Origin: Candidatus Hermodarchaeum yapensis | GTDB taxonomy: Archaea > Asgardarchaeota > Hermodarchaeia > Hermodarchaeales > Hermodarchaeaceae | DNA length: 64,000 nt | Assembly: GCA_016840405.1 (NCBI GenBank) | Contig: JAEOSK010000006.1 | Coordinates: 9,473 to 73,472, forward strand | Reading direction: 5' to 3' | Shown here: piece by piece, positions 16,909 through 43,561 of the stretch | Layout of the letters: every line of letters starts with the position of its first letter | Numbering within the stretch: position 1 is the first letter of the stretch | Position numbers and translations under genes: made by a program | The notes under the pieces: model-generated | The model's database searches: none | Told to the model about the DNA's origin: nothing | Seen by the model: the letters and a program-made list of their open reading frames with translations, nothing else

Positions 16909-17388
16909 GTGACATTCATGTCCTTAGATGAATTTCAAGAGAAAATGAGTTGTCGACGATGTGGTCGACCACGAATCATAACGCGTGTTAGTAAACCGAA
17001 AACTGATCTGGTTAAGCTGTATATGCGTTGCCCAGTACACACTTCAGAAGTCGTCTATCGGATGCCTTTGAGTCTATATGATGCAGCCAGTGGAATAATC
17101 CGAGAACATGTGCTTTTGTGTCGAAAGTGTGGGCAACCTGTTGAAATTACCGGACAGCATGCAGGCAAATTATCGACAAAAGTTCGGATTCTATGCCCCG
17201 AGCATGGTGATGGAGAACGGTTGGTGAATAATTCACTTTTTGATCCCATCCTTGCGGCTGTCCCTGCCAAAGCAGCACCAGAAGCCGCAGTGCCTACTGG
17301 TACCTCAAAGTTTTGTTCCAGTTGTGGTTCACCAGTTCCGGCCCCTGAAGCCCAGTTTTGTCATAATTGTGGGGCTTCGATAGATTAG
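16909..17388 (+). CDS. Zinc-ribbon protein with an internally duplicated CxxC...CPxH module and a C-terminal double zinc ribbon
   Basis: First module is CRRCGRP...(21)...CPVH. Second is CRKCGQP...(21)...CPEH. An Ala/Pro linker follows, then FCSSCG...FCHNCG. Confidence 0.6.
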   Translation: MTFMSLDEFQEKMSCRRCGRPRIITRVSKPKTDLVKLYMRCPVHTSEVVYRMPLSLYDAASGIIREHVLLCRKCGQPVEITGQHAGKLSTKVRILCPEHGDGERLVNNSLFDPILAAVPAKAAPEAAVPTGTSKFCSSCGSPVPAPEAQFCHNCGASID

Positions 17389-17441
17389 GATCATTCAGTT
17401 CAACCTATCTGAGAGGGAAGAGGTCCAATCAAACGTCCCTC

Positions 17442-19524: not shown

Positions 19525-20912
19525 ATGCCATCTAAGAGGGCCAATCATCAACTCTCCTTAAGTTATCCTTGTGAATCAACCTATCATCCCGGTTGTATTG
19601 AGGAGTATCAATCTTCAATTGCAATTACCATCCCTGGCTATCTCTGTGATCTTACCATTGCTCAGGAAAAAGCATTAACAGATCTAATGCGACAATTCTG
19701 TATTGCACGTCGTTTAGCCTTTACTTTGTGTAATAAGGGAATTCCATATTCATTGATTGAGAAGCACCTTCAAGAAAAAACAGGTTTAAATTCCCGTTAT
19801 ATTAAGGATGCCATCTACTCAGTGAAGAATCTCCCTTCAACAGGTGTTACTTTTGGTGGCAAGAATAATCAATTTAGTAGAATGACAGGAAAAATTTCTC
19901 AGGAGGAATACACGAAGCGGAGAAACTCAATCCTCATATCACGCGGGGACAAAACGAAGAAAGGCAATCTCAATCTTCGAGTTATTAATGAAAATACTAG
20001 TATCAAACTTGCATTAATATTGGCAGAAGGTTCTGGATTGTTACGACGCTATTCATTCCAGACAAATACTATGCTGAATTTAAGGAAATATTAGATGGAC
20101 AAAAACCATATCAAGTTATAATAAAGCGCCGTGAAAACGATAAAAGGTTTGATGTTCGAATTACGGTTACAATAACGCCAAAGATTATTAGCAGAAGTCG
20201 TGTAATGGCACTTGATATAAATTCAGGGCATGTTGACTTTGCTATTCTTGATGATAATCTGCAATTGATTCAATTGGGACGAATTAATTGTTTCACCCTT
20301 TTGTTTGCGTCAGCAAAAAAACGTGCACACTATCTTTTCAAATTTGTTAATCTTATAACAAGAATTGCACAACATTTTGATGCAATGGTCATAGTAGGGA
20401 AGTTAAACACAGGAAGATTTCGTTCTCGGAACAGGCATGCAAATCGACGAATAAAGCAGATGCCTCAATATAATCTTCGACAGATTCTCAAATATAAGCT
20501 ATTACTCGAAGGCATTCCAGTTGAAGAACGTTCAGAAGCATATACTTCAAAAATTGGAAAAGACTTAGCAGCATTGATTGGAGTAGATACTCATAAAGCG
20601 GCGGCAATTCTTTTTGCCCTCAAATTTCTTGATTATCCGAAATTCATGACATTACGCTCATCAACCCAAGATGAGAAACATCTCCCACTCCGTGTTCAAG
20701 CATATAATGAAGGCAATGGAAGTCGGAGTACAACAGAGCTAAGAGTGGGAAGCGGACTTACTGTCCTATCCAAGACTTACCGTCTAGGATACTATGACAC
20801 CACAGATGGTGGAGGCTACCCGGCAATACCAAGTAGCTGGGGGCTCTCCAATTTTGCTGAGAGCCTGAAGCCAAATTTAGTCCAAAGAATCGTTAAAATT
20901 GTTTTAGACTAA
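19525..20912 (+). pseudogene. TnpB-like (OrfB) gene lacking the zinc finger, disrupted by a frameshift near 20019-20040
   Basis: ORFs 19525..20094 and 20205..20912. The second frame is open upstream to 20019 (IGRRFWIVTTLFIPDKYYAEFKEILDGQKPYQVIIKRRENDKRFDVRITVTI...). RuvC-I-like ALDINSGHVDFAILD; then EAYTSKIG...GVDTHKAAAILFALK with no CxxC pairs. By eye it is more A+T-rich than its flanks. Confidence 0.6.
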
Positions 20913-23215: not shown

Positions 23216-24309
23216 GCCATGATGGATCGTAATCCTATCATCTTGATGTTTTGGGCAGCGTTAGAGTCCCGATCATGCTGCTTATGACACTTAGGACAGG
23301 TCCATTCTTTTTCTGAGAGAGTTAACGCGTTATACTTGAAGCCACAGGCTGAGCAGAGCTGGCTCGTTGCCTCGAACCGCCCTAACGTTATGAATGTCAC
23401 GCCATACCACTCAGCCTTATATTTTAACATCCTGTGAAAGCTAGCCCACGCCGCGTCTGAGATATGTCGTGCTAGTCTACGGTTTCGGATTAAACCTTGT
23501 ACATTCAGGCTCTCCATTATGATCGCTTGGTTCTCGCGTATCAGTCGTGTTGAGAGCTTCTGTTGAAAATCCACACGCTGGTTAGTGACGCGCTCATAGC
23601 ATCGTGCAAGCCTCAGTCTAGCTTTCGTTCGATTTTTTGATCCCTTTTTCTTTCTACTCAGTCTTTTGTGAAGACACCGTAATCTCATGAGCGCGCACCG
23701 AAGGTGCCTGTGATTATCGATTTTCTCACCACCCGACAAGGTGGCATATGTGGTGATACCGACATCAATTCCAATCGAACTCTTTGTAGTGACTCTTCTC
23801 TTCCTGGGAGGAGATTTTCCATCCTCGACCACAATAGAGATGAAGATCTTGCCAGTGTTGGTTGAGACAACGGTGCACGTTTTTGGAATGCCCTCAAATC
23901 TTCGATGAAAGACGGTTTTTACTTGACCAATCTTTGGTAGTCGCACTCTTCGGGTATCAAAGTCGACTGTAAAGAATTGTGGGATATCAAAGGACTGTCT
24001 GTGTTGTTTTCTACTCTTGAATTTAGGATATCCGTACCTTTTTTCATCGTGATTGGCGCGTTGAAAGAAATGTTTGAAAGCTAGGTGGAGCCGCTTGACT
24101 GCCTGTTGGAGGGACTGGGAATTGACATGCTTAAGAAATGGATGGTCCTGTTTAAGTTGTATGAGGAGGTGGTTCAGGTCGTACCAGCTCAGACTCTTGC
24201 CGTCCTCATCATACACACGCATCTTTGTTTCTAGTGCCCAGTTATAAACGAACCGACAGGCATCCGTGTTTTTCCGAATTCGTTCGCGCTGAATCTTGTT
24301 TGGATACAA
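23128..24309 (-). CDS. tnpB: TnpB (IS200/IS605 OrfB) RNA-guided endonuclease family, apparently intact
   Basis: N-terminus (Y)RLYPNKIQRERI. RuvC-I is IGIDVGITTYATLS, RuvC-II is AIIMESLNVQGL. Zn ribbon is CSACG...CPKCH. RuvC-III is HDRDSNAAQNI. TTG start; no ATG or GTG is available further upstream in frame. Confidence 0.9.
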   Translation of the reverse strand: MYPNKIQRERIRKNTDACRFVYNWALETKMRVYDEDGKSLSWYDLNHLLIQLKQDHPFLKHVNSQSLQQAVKRLHLAFKHFFQRANHDEKRYGYPKFKSRKQHRQSFDIPQFFTVDFDTRRVRLPKIGQVKTVFHRRFEGIPKTCTVVSTNTGKIFISIVVEDGKSPPRKRRVTTKSSIGIDVGITTYATLSGGEKIDNHRHLRCALMRLRCLHKRLSRKKKGSKNRTKARLRLARCYERVTNQRVDFQQKLSTRLIRENQAIIMESLNVQGLIRNRRLARHISDAAWASFHRMLKYKAEWYGVTFITLGRFEATSQLCSACGFKYNALTLSEKEWTCPKCHKQHDRDSNAAQNIKMIGLRSIMAPREPREEPVELSALAEASKQEAPSFRAG

Positions 24310-39986: not shown

Positions 39987-41546
39987 TTGCCATTTCAGAT
40001 TGATCTCATTATTCATAATGTTAACATCATCACCATGGATCCTGCTATGCCTAGAGCTGAAGCGATGGCGGTTACGAATGGACGGATTATCGCGCTTGGC
40101 TCAGAGGAGGAATTGAAACCGCTTTTTGAGAATGCCAAAGATATCATTGATGGAAAAGGCCATACGGTGCTTCCGGGATTCATTGACACTCATGCCCATT
40201 TGGCTGGACTTGGTCGCAAATTATTTCACCTGGATCTTGGCGACACTACATCCGCAGAAGAAGCTATTCAATTAGTTGGAGAACGGGTGAAAAAGAGTCC
40301 ACCTGGTAAGCTCATATTAGGTTACAGCTGGGATGAAAGCAAATGGACAACTCCTCGTTACATAACAAAAGATGACCTAGACCTGATTGCTCCTGATAAT
40401 CCAATCGTGTTGATTCGAGTTTGTGGTCATCTAGTAAGCACAAATTCAGCAGCGCTTAGGCAATTAGACATTGATGCAACGCATCCAGGAGTTGACAAAG
40501 ACAATGACACTGGTGAACCAACAGGAGTTCTCCGGGATATTCCCATTGATACTAGGAAATTAGAAACCGATGAGGAAGATTTGGCTCAATCTATTATTGC
40601 TGCATGTCACTTCGCAAACAGCGTTGGTGTCACATCCGTACATGAGAATCTATACCGCCAACAGTTACAAACCGTTGCAGCGTTCATTAAAGTCCGACAA
40701 GCACAACAACTTACCGTGAGAGTGTATGCCAATCTTGAAACTCAACTATTGGATAAGCTTGCAGGGCTAGGCTTACCTACCGGACTAGGAGACGAATACT
40801 TCAGGTTAGGCGGTGTGAAGGTTTTCATAGATGGATCCTTCGGAGCCCAAACCGCAGCACTTTCTCAACCTTACCAAGACCACTCAGAATCTGATGGCCT
40901 CCTACTCTTCGATGAAGAGGATTATCGATTTCTTCTCAAAACTGCCAACCAATTGGGGCTCCAAGTGAGTACTCATGCTATCGGTGACCGGGGGATTGAC
41001 ATGGTTTTGAGAGCGCATGAACAAGTGAGCAAAGCTAAGTTCGTGAAAGAACTTCGGCACAATATCATTCATGCTGAATTTCTTACACAACCGTTAATCG
41101 ACCGAGTGAAAAAGTTGGATATACTTTTACTCCAACAACCGAATTTTGTGCATCGATGGGGACTCCCCGGAGAGATGTATTATTCCCGTCTGGGCCCGGA
41201 ACGTGCTCAGCAATTAAACAATTTCCGGAAAATTTTAGATGCCGGTATCAAAATCGCGTTTGGATCTGATTGTATGCCGATGGACCCGATTTATGGAATC
41301 TATTCGGCTGTGACACACCCTAACCCTGCGACGCGAATTACTGTGGAGGAGGCAATTCGACTCTATACTGCTGATGCAGCATATGCCAGTTTTGAAGAAC
41401 AAGATAAAGGAACGCTTGCCCTCGGAAAACTAGCTGATTTCATACGCATTTCCGGAGATCCCTTCACCCTGAAACCTGAGAACTTACGGAATTTGAAAGT
41501 ACTTGAAACCTATGTTGGTGGACGTCAGGTCTTTTCAAGTCTCTAA
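39987..41546 (+). CDS. Amidohydrolase-family metal-dependent hydrolase (YtcJ-like, amidohydrolase 3)
   Basis: VLPGFIDTHAHL, a later HAIGD segment and a C-terminal GSD segment. TTG start. Confidence 0.85.
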   Translation: MPFQIDLIIHNVNIITMDPAMPRAEAMAVTNGRIIALGSEEELKPLFENAKDIIDGKGHTVLPGFIDTHAHLAGLGRKLFHLDLGDTTSAEEAIQLVGERVKKSPPGKLILGYSWDESKWTTPRYITKDDLDLIAPDNPIVLIRVCGHLVSTNSAALRQLDIDATHPGVDKDNDTGEPTGVLRDIPIDTRKLETDEEDLAQSIIAACHFANSVGVTSVHENLYRQQLQTVAAFIKVRQAQQLTVRVYANLETQLLDKLAGLGLPTGLGDEYFRLGGVKVFIDGSFGAQTAALSQPYQDHSESDGLLLFDEEDYRFLLKTANQLGLQVSTHAIGDRGIDMVLRAHEQVSKAKFVKELRHNIIHAEFLTQPLIDRVKKLDILLLQQPNFVHRWGLPGEMYYSRLGPERAQQLNNFRKILDAGIKIAFGSDCMPMDPIYGIYSAVTHPNPATRITVEEAIRLYTADAAYASFEEQDKGTLALGKLADFIRISGDPFTLKPENLRNLKVLETYVGGRQVFSSL

Positions 41547-42527
41547 TGGCCGCTTCCGCATCAAAAATGCAGTCGTTTCTTGAAGGTTAGGAAATAGCGT
41601 TTGGCCAGGCTGTCGGGATACTCGTAAAGCAGCTACCGCATTGGCGAAGACTGCAGCCCGACCCATAGTGGCTCCAGAAATCATACTCACAGCAAAGCCA
41701 GCATCAAAGGCATCACCGGCCGCTGTAGTATCCTGAACCTCAACATCGAAGGCAGGTATATGATGTTGATCACGTTTTGTTGCTAACAAACAGCCTTTCT
41801 TGCCTAGTTTTACTACGAGAGCAGGAGCTCCAGCTTCGATGAGTAGTTGAGCTCCTTTCCGTGGACTACGCTCACCTGTTAGCGCCTTGACTTCATCACC
41901 ATTTGGAAAAAACACATCAACAAATTGAAGAATTTCTTTTACCTCTTCAACAGTATCGTCTGACCAGTCAGCAGGATCCCAGCCTGTGTCGAAAGATGTT
42001 GTTGCTCCCCGTGATTTTGCTAGTTTTAATAATTCTACTAAAGGTCGACCTTGAAGAGCATCTAGAAGGTGATACCCAGCTAAATGAACCCATCGCGGTG
42101 GTGGATCTTGTTTGAGACATACTTCAAGGTCATCCAGTTGGAGTTGGGCGTTCGTTCCTTTGAAGGTGACAAAAGCCCGTTCACCATCTTCGCGTATCAT
42201 GGCAATTGTGACTCCTGTCGAGGAATCCTCGGCGAGTCGTAAGCATTGAGTATCGACATCAACCTCTCGAAAAGCTTTCAACACGACTTCGCCAAATTGG
42301 TCAACCGCTAGACGACCTGCAAATCCTGTTTTGACACCAAGGCTAGCCGCACAAAGGGCAAAATTCGCCGCAGATCCTGCAGCCCGAGTCAGCATTTCAG
42401 GCACAACAACTTCGCGACCAAAACCTGGCATCTTTTCCAATTGTGGAAATACAAATTCAGCATTTGCATCCCCAATTGCCAATATTTGTACTACCGTCGG
42501 GATGACCACTCTTTTTTGCTGATTCAT
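41535..42527 (-). CDS. PfkB-family carbohydrate kinase
   Basis: DTTAAGDAFDAGF signature and an N-terminal GG-containing lid region. Confidence 0.85.
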   Translation of the reverse strand: MNQQKRVVIPTVVQILAIGDANAEFVFPQLEKMPGFGREVVVPEMLTRAAGSAANFALCAASLGVKTGFAGRLAVDQFGEVVLKAFREVDVDTQCLRLAEDSSTGVTIAMIREDGERAFVTFKGTNAQLQLDDLEVCLKQDPPPRWVHLAGYHLLDALQGRPLVELLKLAKSRGATTSFDTGWDPADWSDDTVEEVKEILQFVDVFFPNGDEVKALTGERSPRKGAQLLIEAGAPALVVKLGKKGCLLATKRDQHHIPAFDVEVQDTTAAGDAFDAGFAVSMISGATMGRAAVFANAVAALRVSRQPGQTLFPNLQETTAFLMRKRPLET

Positions 42528-42639
42528 TTTTCTGACCCCGTAACCAACTCTAAATGTTGAGTGGACTAAGTATTGACATTCTCCACGATTGAAATCGGGA
42601 GATTTGTGGATTTATGATACTCCAAAGGGTATGCCACCA

Positions 42640-43080
42640 CCCTGTTACCCAGTTCCACCTCATGACCGTGCTAGCTGATTCGCCACCGAATCCGTGAGCG
42701 CAGTCATCACGGGTGCAAGCCCTATTCTAGCGAGGGGTCGTTGCTTTGCGGTGAAGAATAGTCCGCTGCCTGTTAAGAGGGGTTGCCGTGGTGTTGAAAG
42801 ACACGCCAGGTGGGATAAGGTTTATTATGTTCCCTTGGAGACTGCCAAATCTTCAGCGGCTCACCGCACTAGCTTTTTAGCGTGAATCTATATAAACGCC
42901 GCGGCGATAAATCAACCCGAATAAATGCGATGCCCTGATCGCTAAAGTTAGCCTAATATTAATATTGGGAATATCCGCTCCGCTTACTCGGCTAAAAGAA
43001 GAAGGGGATGAACGCTCTTGCCTGTTGGCAATGAGGCGTTCTCACCTGCCGGATTGGCTTTCAAGCGATATCTGATTGTT
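42640..43080 (+). ncRNA. Candidate structured non-coding RNA(s); identity unresolved
   Basis: A gap of about 590 nt between two minus-strand genes, with only one weak 63-aa ORF and visibly higher G+C. Stacked hairpins: 42677-42692 GAUUCG/CGAAUC; 42692-42712 CCGUGA/UCACGG; 42711-42722 GGGU-GCAA-GCCC; 42791-42804 GUGUU-GAAA-GACAC; 42952-42969; 43010-43041. G-U pairs and GNRA loops work only on the + strand. A U5 tract lies at 42874-42878 and TATATAAA at 42889-42896. Confidence 0.45.
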
Positions 43081-43120
43081 TGGTTGATTCGTTGTTCGTA
43101 GATGGCACTTAGACCTGTTT

Positions 43121-43561
43121 CTACCCGCGAACCAATGTGATTTCCATAGCTGAGACGTTTGCGACGTTACCCTCTGCAGTTTTGACTTGTTCAGTGGAGA
43201 TCTCAATTTCGCTGACGACAAGATCAGTCATGAAGCGATTTCGGAGAACTTCAGCTACGTCCACAGCACGACTGATGGCTCGACCACGCGCTTTAATGAC
43301 TAGTTCCTCTGGATTTCGATTGAGTTGAGTAACACAAGCAGTAATGTAGCTCATTAGCGGTTTACTGCCCACGAATACGACGCTTTCATCACGCCGGGTC
43401 TTTGGTGCTTCAGCCTTTTTCTCCTCTTTCTTCGGAGCTTTTTCGGCCTTTGGTTCTTCAGCTTTCACTTTTTCAGCTTTGGGTTCTTTTGCTTTGGGTT
43501 CTTTTGCTTTTTTAGTCTCAGCAGACTTGGATTCTTTAGACATTTTGGATATTTCCTCCAT
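43121..43561 (-). CDS. albA: Alba DNA/RNA-binding protein with a Lys/Glu/Pro/Ala-rich N-terminal tail
   Basis: C-terminal 90 aa VVFVGSKPLMSYITACVTQL...LVIKARGRAISRAVDVAEVLRNRF...VSAMEITL is canonical Alba. The first ~55 aa are KAKEPKAKEPKAEKVKAEEPKAEKAPKKEEKKAEAPK. Confidence 0.85.
   Translation of the reverse strand: MEEISKMSKESKSAETKKAKEPKAKEPKAEKVKAEEPKAEKAPKKEEKKAEAPKTRRDESVVFVGSKPLMSYITACVTQLNRNPEELVIKARGRAISRAVDVAEVLRNRFMTDLVVSEIEISTEQVKTAEGNVANVSAMEITLVRG
43476..43505 (-). repeat. Tandem 15-nt repeat (gctttgggttctttt x2 on the + strand) encoding KEPKA-KEPKA in the Alba tail
   Basis: Direct reading of 43476-43490 and 43491-43505. Confidence 0.8.

Follow-up and report, generated by a model that had tools for sequence, protein, structure and literature searches.

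A gene-less IS200/IS605-type element with an omega-RNA-like right end between the Alba and pfkB kinase genes of Candidatus Hermodarchaeum yapensis

Gene-less mobile elements and the gap between kinase and Alba

The element IS608 of Helicobacter pylori inserts seamlessly at TTAC, finishes in TCAA at its right end, and carries subterminal hairpins about 8–10 nt from the right end and about 20 nt from the left end. Palindrome-associated relatives known as PATEs are gene-less derivatives of the IS200/IS605 family, and some of them encode omega-RNAs that are used in trans (Meers et al. 2023, PMC10055086). PATEs of Haloquadratum walsbyi have been described (PMC3119063), and omega-RNAs of archaeal IS200/IS605 (IS1341-type) elements are expressed in several archaea (PMC12558985). 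In the architecture of the TnpB omega-RNA, the guide segment adjoins the right end of the element and is derived from its flank (Meers et al., PMC10055086).

Here we consider a stretch of 64,000 nucleotides from Candidatus Hermodarchaeum yapensis (the window), taken from a genome of 2.7 Mb in 77 contigs that is 86% complete. Positions 42528–43120 of the window form an ORF-free gap of 593 nt between the ORFs of a pfkB-family kinase and of Alba, the latter with an N-terminal extension of about 60 aa that is rich in Lys, Glu, Pro, and Ala (Table 1). No ORF in the gap exceeds 63 aa. The original prediction described it as the longest non-coding gap in the window, which we confirm for internal stretches without an ORF of at least 100 aa; the window edge (1–1215) is longer. 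We consider it highly probable that the gap is composite, consisting of a gene-less, PATE-like element of the IS200/IS605 family at 42573–42952 and, beside it, the 3' untranslated region and terminator of Alba with the original promoter of the kinase. These two parts, the element and the Alba tail at 42954–43120, are unrelated.

Like PATEs, the window element lacks a protein gene, has kept IS200/IS605 ends, and carries an omega-RNA-type module at its right end; by analogy, it would depend on TnpA and TnpB supplied in trans. It differs from PATEs in its greater length (~380 nt), in a TATA-like putative promoter of its own, and in an extra 5' domain of about 150 nt that is not found in tnpB-bearing copies. 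It also differs in its setting, an uncultured archaeal class from which 19 species genomes were compared, and in a genome in which no TnpA was detected. With IS608 the element shares seamless insertion at TTAC, the TCAA end, and the spacing of the right-end hairpin, and the left hairpin spacing of IS608 is seen in one paralog (C14a, below), whereas neither tnpA nor tnpB lies inside the element and the left-end hairpin of the window copy has decayed. The right-end module resembles the TnpB omega-RNA or reRNA (ISDra2 type): in full-length relatives it sits 3' of tnpB in tnpB sense, overlapping the final codons of that gene and reaching as far as the right end. Several of its helices covary on the tnpB-sense strand, and any guide would, by analogy, be derived from the flank. 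Unlike those modules, the one in the window is detached from tnpB and apparently has its own promoter, and it matched no Rfam family. Gene-less derivatives of IS200/IS605 are known already, and what is particular here is the TATA-like promoter, the extra 5' domain, and the seat between a host promoter and its gene.

Table 1. Features of the gap and of its neighbours, in window coordinates
Feature	Positions	Strand	Basis
pfkB-family kinase gene	41535–42527	-	Pfam PF00294, E 4e-54; ATG 45 nt beyond the right end of the element
Right-end flank, would-be guide (TACTTAGTCCACTCAA) should the RNA work as an omega-RNA	42557–42572	-	Position; by analogy
Gene-less IS200/IS605-type (PATE-like) element, ~380 nt	42573–42952	-	Empty sites in relatives; left end 42952, right end 42573
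Right-end/omega-RNA-like 3' module, three helices, ending ...CUCCCGAUUUCAAUCGUGGAGAAUGUCAA	42573–42664	-	Covariance model R1, 88 bits
Further covarying hairpin of the 3' domain	42665–42725	-	RNAalifold, three short copies
5' domain of a putative ~300-nt RNA, closed by long-range GCGGUG/CACCGC	42726–42870	-	Conserved among the three short copies alone; weak, strand-ambiguous fold
TATA-like box, TTTATATAGA on the minus strand	42889–42898	-	Alignment of three short copies
Degenerate left end	42899–42952	-	Comparison with paralog C14a and tnpB copies
Remnant of the target/TAM tetranucleotide	42953–42956	-	TTAG here, TTAC in empty sites
Putative ancestral kinase promoter, AGCGGAUAU and AT-rich box	42957–42993	-	In relatives, ~45–60 nt upstream of the kinase ATG
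Alba 3' UTR with likely terminator	42994–43120	-	Conservation with Alba CDS; hairpin and U tract
Alba gene	43121–43561	-	Pfam PF01918 over residues 61–122

Empty sites, paralogs, and family membership

The insertion is directly supported by empty sites in relatives. In the sister species G002 and G005, with flanks about 95% identical, the flank upstream of the kinase runs straight into the equivalent of 42954 and about 380 nt are missing. Ten further species of the genus that have the locus also lack these nucleotides (12 of 12 in total without the insertion). Read on the minus strand, with slashes for junctions, the empty site is ATTAC/TACTTAG and the filled site is ATTAG/GCTAAC...GTCAA/TACTTAG. 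At greater length, the empty site reads ...ATAATTAC/TACTTAGTCC... and the filled site ...AATATTAG/GCTAAC...GTGGAGAATGTCAA/TACTTAGTCC..., so that ...GTGGAGAATGTCAA is the minus-strand end of the element. This distribution indicates that 42573–42952 was inserted in the lineage of the present species alone. The boundary also bears on two features that had been attributed to the gap as a whole. Enrichment in G+C holds for 42573–42953 (0.504, compared with 0.445 for the window) and does not hold for 42954–43120 (0.449). The hairpin CCTAATAT/ATATTGGG at 42952–42969, which the original prediction took for an RNA helix, straddles the junction 42952/53 and is thus an accidental by-product of the insertion.

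The first ~150 nt of the element in plus-strand reading recur elsewhere in the genome, twice on contig C14 (C14a and C14b) and once each on C65 and C27. C14a and C65 match the window element over its full length. C27 and C14b share the terminal ~100 nt alone and then run into ORFs that match PF07282 (TnpB zinc-ribbon/RuvC; matches at C27:22266–22451 and C14:95567–95761) and carry CxxC...CxxC and HRD motifs. The shared module lies right after the tnpB stop codon, with tnpB sense corresponding to the minus strand of the window, and closes with ...AATCTCCCGAyyTyrrTCGTGGAGARTGTCAA, immediately beyond which the flanks diverge. A coding role for the insert was considered and rejected, as tblastn with the TnpB ORFs recovers just the last ~13 tnpB codons, which the short copies retain; the element has no ORF longer than 63 aa. 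In a blastn search of the genome and the retrieved loci, the left ~230 nt of the element had homologs nowhere but in the short paralogs C14a and C65.

Lengths of the three short copies are 375–381 nt, and pairwise identity is about 74%–76%. The C65 copy (381 nt) is seamless, with TTTTTAC/element/TGCTCAACG here and TTTTTAC/TGCTCAACG in G002, an exact junction, and C14a (~375 nt) is a seamless insertion after GTTTAC in comparison with G002 and G005. TTTAC thus precedes both paralogs, and CTTAC precedes a tnpB-bearing copy, G010:C46. Filled and empty sites of all three short copies lack a target duplication. Insertion 3' of TTAC without target duplication and a right end that finishes in TCAA are what we take to be the hallmarks of IS608-type elements. 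Given its seamless TTAC insertion, TCAA end, right-end hairpin, homology to the ends of tnpB-bearing copies, and lack of a protein gene, the element belongs to the IS200/IS605 family and is IS608-like.

A covariance model (R1) built on the terminal 96 nt of the element found 17 copies, spread over seven of the 19 genomes compared across the class. Of these copies, five stand directly behind a full tnpB frame and one behind a partial frame; the other 11 are orphans, some of which occupy orthologous sites in several species. The terminus was GTCAA in nine of the nine copies first compared, with flanks diverging at once; among all 17 matches, 14 end in GTCAA and three divergent ones (G013:C91, G010:C22, and G013:C338) end in GCCAA. 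At the other end, C14a has a hairpin 20 nt from the junction, similar both to the hairpin of the right end and to the left ends of the tnpB copies C14b and G010:C46. In the window copy and in C65, this hairpin has decayed or looks different. With a degenerate left-end hairpin and with TTAC changed to TTAG, the window copy may be immobile.

A search of the genome for a Y1 transposase (PF01797) came back empty, although at 86% completeness the assembly could hide one. Such an enzyme would be needed for mobility and does not define the element structurally. Both tnpB genes of this genome that are followed by this right end have in-frame stops, so the cognate nuclease may be missing as well. An intact-looking tnpB frame of 395 aa is open upstream of the module at G013:C91.

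Fold, strand, and transcription of the element

The right-end module has a covarying, three-helix structure. Across the 17 copies, in an alignment (A7) that we note was fitted to the covariance model, 12 of 26 pairs show compensatory changes (0 of 500 shuffles were as good), 35 cells are doubly changed compared with 11.6 expected, and 89.6% of paired cells can pair compared with 36%–52% in controls with slid partners. In the terminal right-end hairpin, seven of 12 pairs covary, which could equally reflect a hairpin of single-stranded DNA recognised by TnpA.

The strand of the fold is also directly supported. G-U pairs are abundant on the tnpB-sense strand (13 of 17 copies at one pair, for example) and would be A-C mismatches on the opposite strand, so the domain with the best support belongs to the window's minus strand. 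For the 3' domain (42573–42725), the consensus energy of the three short copies is -53.6 kcal/mol on the minus strand and -43.4 kcal/mol on the plus strand. RNAalifold on these copies gave 18 compensatory pairs, and the inner hairpin, GAUUCG-GUGG-CGAAUC in the window, becomes GACGCG/CGCGUC and UACUUG/GAGUA in the paralogs. These results contradict the plus-strand folding proposed originally. The gap does contain a covarying, RNA-type fold, as had been suggested. Folding of the whole gap as a single sequence beats shuffled sequences modestly on either strand (z of -1.91 plus and -1.82 minus), and these z-scores fail to tell the strands apart.

The individual sequence motifs of the original prediction are all present, including the helices GGGT-GCAA-GCCC (42711–42722) and GTGTT-GAAA-GACAC (42791–42804), the long-range pairings of GCGGTG (42748–42753) with CACCGC (42862–42867) and of AGTCCGC (42760–42766) with GCGGCT (42856–42861), the T5 run (42874–42878), and the box TATATAAA (42889–42896). 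The suggestion that this box divides two units was a useful hunch, but the box itself reads as a TATA box of the minus strand. Its counterparts in the three short copies are TTTATATAGA, TTTTTATAGA, and TTTTTATGAG, about 320 nt (316–324) upstream of the element end, and we interpret it as a putative promoter of the element RNA that would point towards the kinase. Between this box and the 3' domain lies the 5' domain, whose fold is weakly supported (z-score of -1.15) and ambiguous as to strand.

Two contigs from RNA libraries overlap the gap. We note that such contigs give neither strand nor ends nor expression level, that DNA carry-over is possible, and that gaps in the coverage of RNA runs (42728–42932, for example) carry no weight. 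A wetland metatranscriptome contig of 293 nt, 91% alike, bridges the 5' end of the kinase and the 3' domain of the element (42425–42716). The second contig, of 232 nt and from another library, covers 42959–43166 and is contiguous with the 3' end of Alba; its left flank differs and is like the empty site. Both contigs would fit transcription that continues past the right end into the kinase, and Alba transcripts that reach into 42954–43120. DNA runs from marine sediment, seawater, and an estuary also contain the stretch, and the estuary run (X7) has the filled locus at an identity of at least 99%.

Taken together, the best reading of 42573–42952 is an IS608-like, non-autonomous element that brings along a promoter and, on the minus strand, an omega-RNA-like gene. 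The element entered a TTAC site between the likely Alba terminator and kinase promoter on one side and the kinase start codon on the other. In minus-strand order it consists of a decayed left end, the TATA-like putative promoter, a putative structured RNA gene of about 300 nt, and the right end; the last ~100 nt of the RNA gene show homology to the scaffold of the omega-RNA and to the hairpin of the right end that are found behind tnpB genes. In the mechanism we consider likely, an RNA from the element's own promoter would read past the right end into the flank, which would supply the guide (TACTTAGTCC...). A TnpB nuclease acting in trans could then use this RNA to cut empty sites flanked by TTAC, which would help the element to be retained, and a Y1 TnpA, also in trans, could mobilise the element as single-stranded DNA. 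We infer the use of the promoter, the ends of the RNA, its use by TnpB, and any present-day activity from the arrangement of these parts.

The Alba tail and alternative explanations

The remainder of the gap, 42954–43120, has a different history. It is 72%–95% conserved in 12 relatives of the genus, as well conserved as the Alba coding sequence with which it is contiguous. A model of this block (R2) matches 13 of 14 other genomes of the genus, weakly in G006 (55 bits) and not in G009, and has no match beyond the genus, sister genus included. In G006, the block stays with Alba though the downstream gene is not an intact kinase. By inspection, Alba of the sister genus is followed by a similar GGGAGAACG...GUUCUCCC hairpin (GAGAACG) and a U-rich tract but by no kinase. 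On the minus strand, the block contains a small hairpin (~43063–43081), a long hairpin, GAGAACGCC...GGCGUUC (~43006–43047), whose apical part varies among relatives with pairing kept, and a pyrimidine/U tract (42994–43007), followed by GCCGG, then AGCGGAUAU, and then an AT-rich box. The simplest reading is an ordinary Alba 3' UTR with a hairpin and U-rich terminator, and then the ancestral kinase promoter, which the insertion would now separate from its gene.

We also considered whether this block is an independent small RNA or a cis-element for autoregulation of Alba. The degree of conservation, the invariant motifs CCGGCAG, GAGAACGCC/GGCGUUC, and UUGCCGG, and a minus-strand fold z-score of -3.3 are in keeping with such a role, as are indels of 1–2 nt among relatives, which rule out coding. 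However, the hairpin and U-rich tract have the usual layout of a terminator and are common to the sister genus, the block has no Rfam match, and RNA-library contigs extend into it from the Alba coding sequence. Covariation is essentially lacking, as the helices are almost invariant and most pairs never vary. By eye, no conserved C/D box, H/ACA motif (ACA after the lower stem), or K-turn was seen in 42954–43120. We therefore regard a separate small RNA or cis-element as unlikely. A leader of the kinase was rejected for this block too, as its conserved part stays with Alba even where no kinase lies downstream.

For the element itself, the original prediction had raised the idea of a housekeeping or novel structured RNA on the plus strand, related perhaps to RNase P, MRP, or SRP RNA and functionally tied to Alba. 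The local helices and GNRA-type loops it described do exist, the 5' domain folds slightly better on the plus strand across the three copies, and a GC-rich helix with a bulged U superficially recalls P4 of archaeal RNase P RNA. Nevertheless, a search of the whole window against Rfam 15 at gathering thresholds gave no match, and a search of 42400–43250 at E<=10 gave nothing but a chance match to a snoRNA within the kinase coding sequence, with none in the gap; neither RNaseP_arch (RF00373) nor Archaea_SRP (RF01857) matched in either search. With ARAGORN, the window yielded neither a tRNA nor a tmRNA. Both RNAs were sought elsewhere in the genome, as had been advised, and were found on other contigs, RNase P RNA at C17:9705–10091 (166 bits) and SRP RNA at C24:22360–22699 (121 bits), which refutes both identities for the gap. 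The absence of 42573–42952 beside Alba in every other species of the genus excludes a housekeeping RNA, none of the paralogs lies next to Alba, and the tnpB right-end homology and G-U pattern place the best-supported domain on the minus strand. Adjacency to Alba is coincidental, as the insertion went into a TTAC site that happens to lie there, and we consider a plus-strand RNA of this kind very improbable.

Two other explanations accept the insertion but differ in what it now does. The element could be an inert relic, an internally deleted tnpB element that makes no guide RNA and does not move, with helices inherited from masters that were once active. The TAM mutated to TTAG and the degenerate left end of the window copy would fit this, as would the lack of a detected TnpA, the two broken tnpB genes, and the many orphan modules, including those at orthologous sites. 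On the other hand, copies that are only ~75% identical are still of nearly equal length and retain the TATA box as well as compensatory pairs, and an RNA-library contig spans the 3' domain. In addition, all three copies are inserted relative to sister genomes with flanks that are 92%–95% identical, which suggests that mobility was fairly recent. Divergence of 25% among the copies, combined with their absence from close relatives, could be explained either by diverged masters or by precise excision in the relatives. We regard an inert relic as possible, if somewhat unlikely. A takeover by the host, in which the element serves as a mobile promoter and 5' leader and kinase transcription now begins at the TATA box of the element and passes through the structured RNA, seems to us more doubtful. 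The promoter would face the kinase, whose ATG is 45 nt from the right end, the insertion split the kinase from its putative ancestral promoter, a T5 run is lacking from the element's minus strand, and an RNA-library contig joins element and kinase. The C65 paralog, in the same orientation, likewise lies 49–70 nt upstream of an ORF of 508 aa. However, C14a faces the 3' end of the neighbouring gene, the placement may merely follow TTAC sites in AT-rich promoter regions, and the contigs reveal neither a single transcript nor its strand. A conserved cis-leader or riboswitch of the kinase, as distinct from a takeover, was rejected: the kinase leader of the original prediction is right just in the trivial respect that the insertion now lies upstream of the kinase, and 42573–42952 is missing upstream of the kinase in 12 of 12 relatives.

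The reading of the element as non-autonomous, IS608-like, and equipped with a putative promoter and an omega-RNA-like gene removes a false lead, as the gap holds neither a divergent RNase P RNA nor a housekeeping RNA linked to Alba. It documents a gene-less IS200/IS605 family of this kind in a poorly known archaeal class. The exact TTAC and TCAA junctions, together with the covariance model, make such elements easy to annotate and should keep the family from being mistaken for a novel structured RNA. If they act as proposed, these elements would show in nature how a guide RNA can be uncoupled from its nuclease, and an insertion that lands between a gene and its promoter offers, on a small scale, a natural experiment on their influence on host expression. 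More speculatively, and with little confidence, the ~380-nt elements could form a distinct class of self-contained mobile guide-RNA genes, with a promoter, an enlarged omega-RNA under selection, and IS608-type ends, that parasitise TnpA and TnpB in trans. Selection on the RNA would then account for copies that are 75% identical but agree in length and in compensated helices. If so, self-contained guide-RNA genes that land at TTAC sites in promoters might rewire host genes, such as the pfkB kinase here, by giving them a new promoter and a structured leader.

Genes beside the window copy and its paralog

Insertions of 28-30 nt occur in Alba at 43483 and 43502 in RNA-library contigs from related strains, so the repeat length in the N-terminal extension of the protein differs among strains. 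In G006, a genome of the same genus (locus L070, G006:C27), the Alba 3' element, a conserved block that is probably the 3' UTR and terminator, is followed by a gene other than the intact pfkB kinase. Synteny is interrupted there, since kinase similarity downstream of Alba is limited to a weak 51-aa match. The full-length paralog on contig C65 lies upstream of a 508-aa ORF, mirroring the placement of the window copy upstream of the kinase.

Coordinates of features in the window and in compared genomes
Feature	Location	Strand	Remarks
TnpB-type (PF07282) loci	window, about 2500-2691, 17293-17394, 20469-20555, 23245-23448
C65 paralog	L039:1501-1881 = G000:C65:73499-73879		same orientation; 508-aa ORF begins 49-70 nt downstream
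Alba N-terminal extension	window 43391-43561	minus	~60 aa, Lys/Glu/Pro/Ala-rich; precedes Pfam Alba domain (residues 61-122)
Orphan right-end pair	L048 (G010:C20), L044 (G014:C40)
Orphan right-end pair	L049 (G014:C15), L045 (G005:C339)
Orphan right-end pair	L056 (G010:C22), L050 (G013:C338)

TnpB-only elements and their right ends

The 2.7-Mb source genome carries a heavy burden of tnpB-only elements, with no transposase visible: PF07282 loci number ~32, several with in-frame stops, and no Y1 TnpA (PF01797) was detected genome-wide. Elsewhere in the class, three pairs of orphan right-end modules retain tnpB remnants of just 20-45 codons. Within each pair the species differ and the flanks beyond GTCAA or GCCAA are identical, so the modules apparently occupy orthologous sites; they look like old insertions kept through speciation. 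G030, a 1.4-Mb genome from a different and distant family of the same phylum, has a 91% identical counterpart of the right end's last 32-33 nt, which comprise the hairpin and GTCAA (L016:1501-1532, L021:1501-1532); the sequence upstream is unrelated. The transposase-recognised end is thus shared well outside the class.
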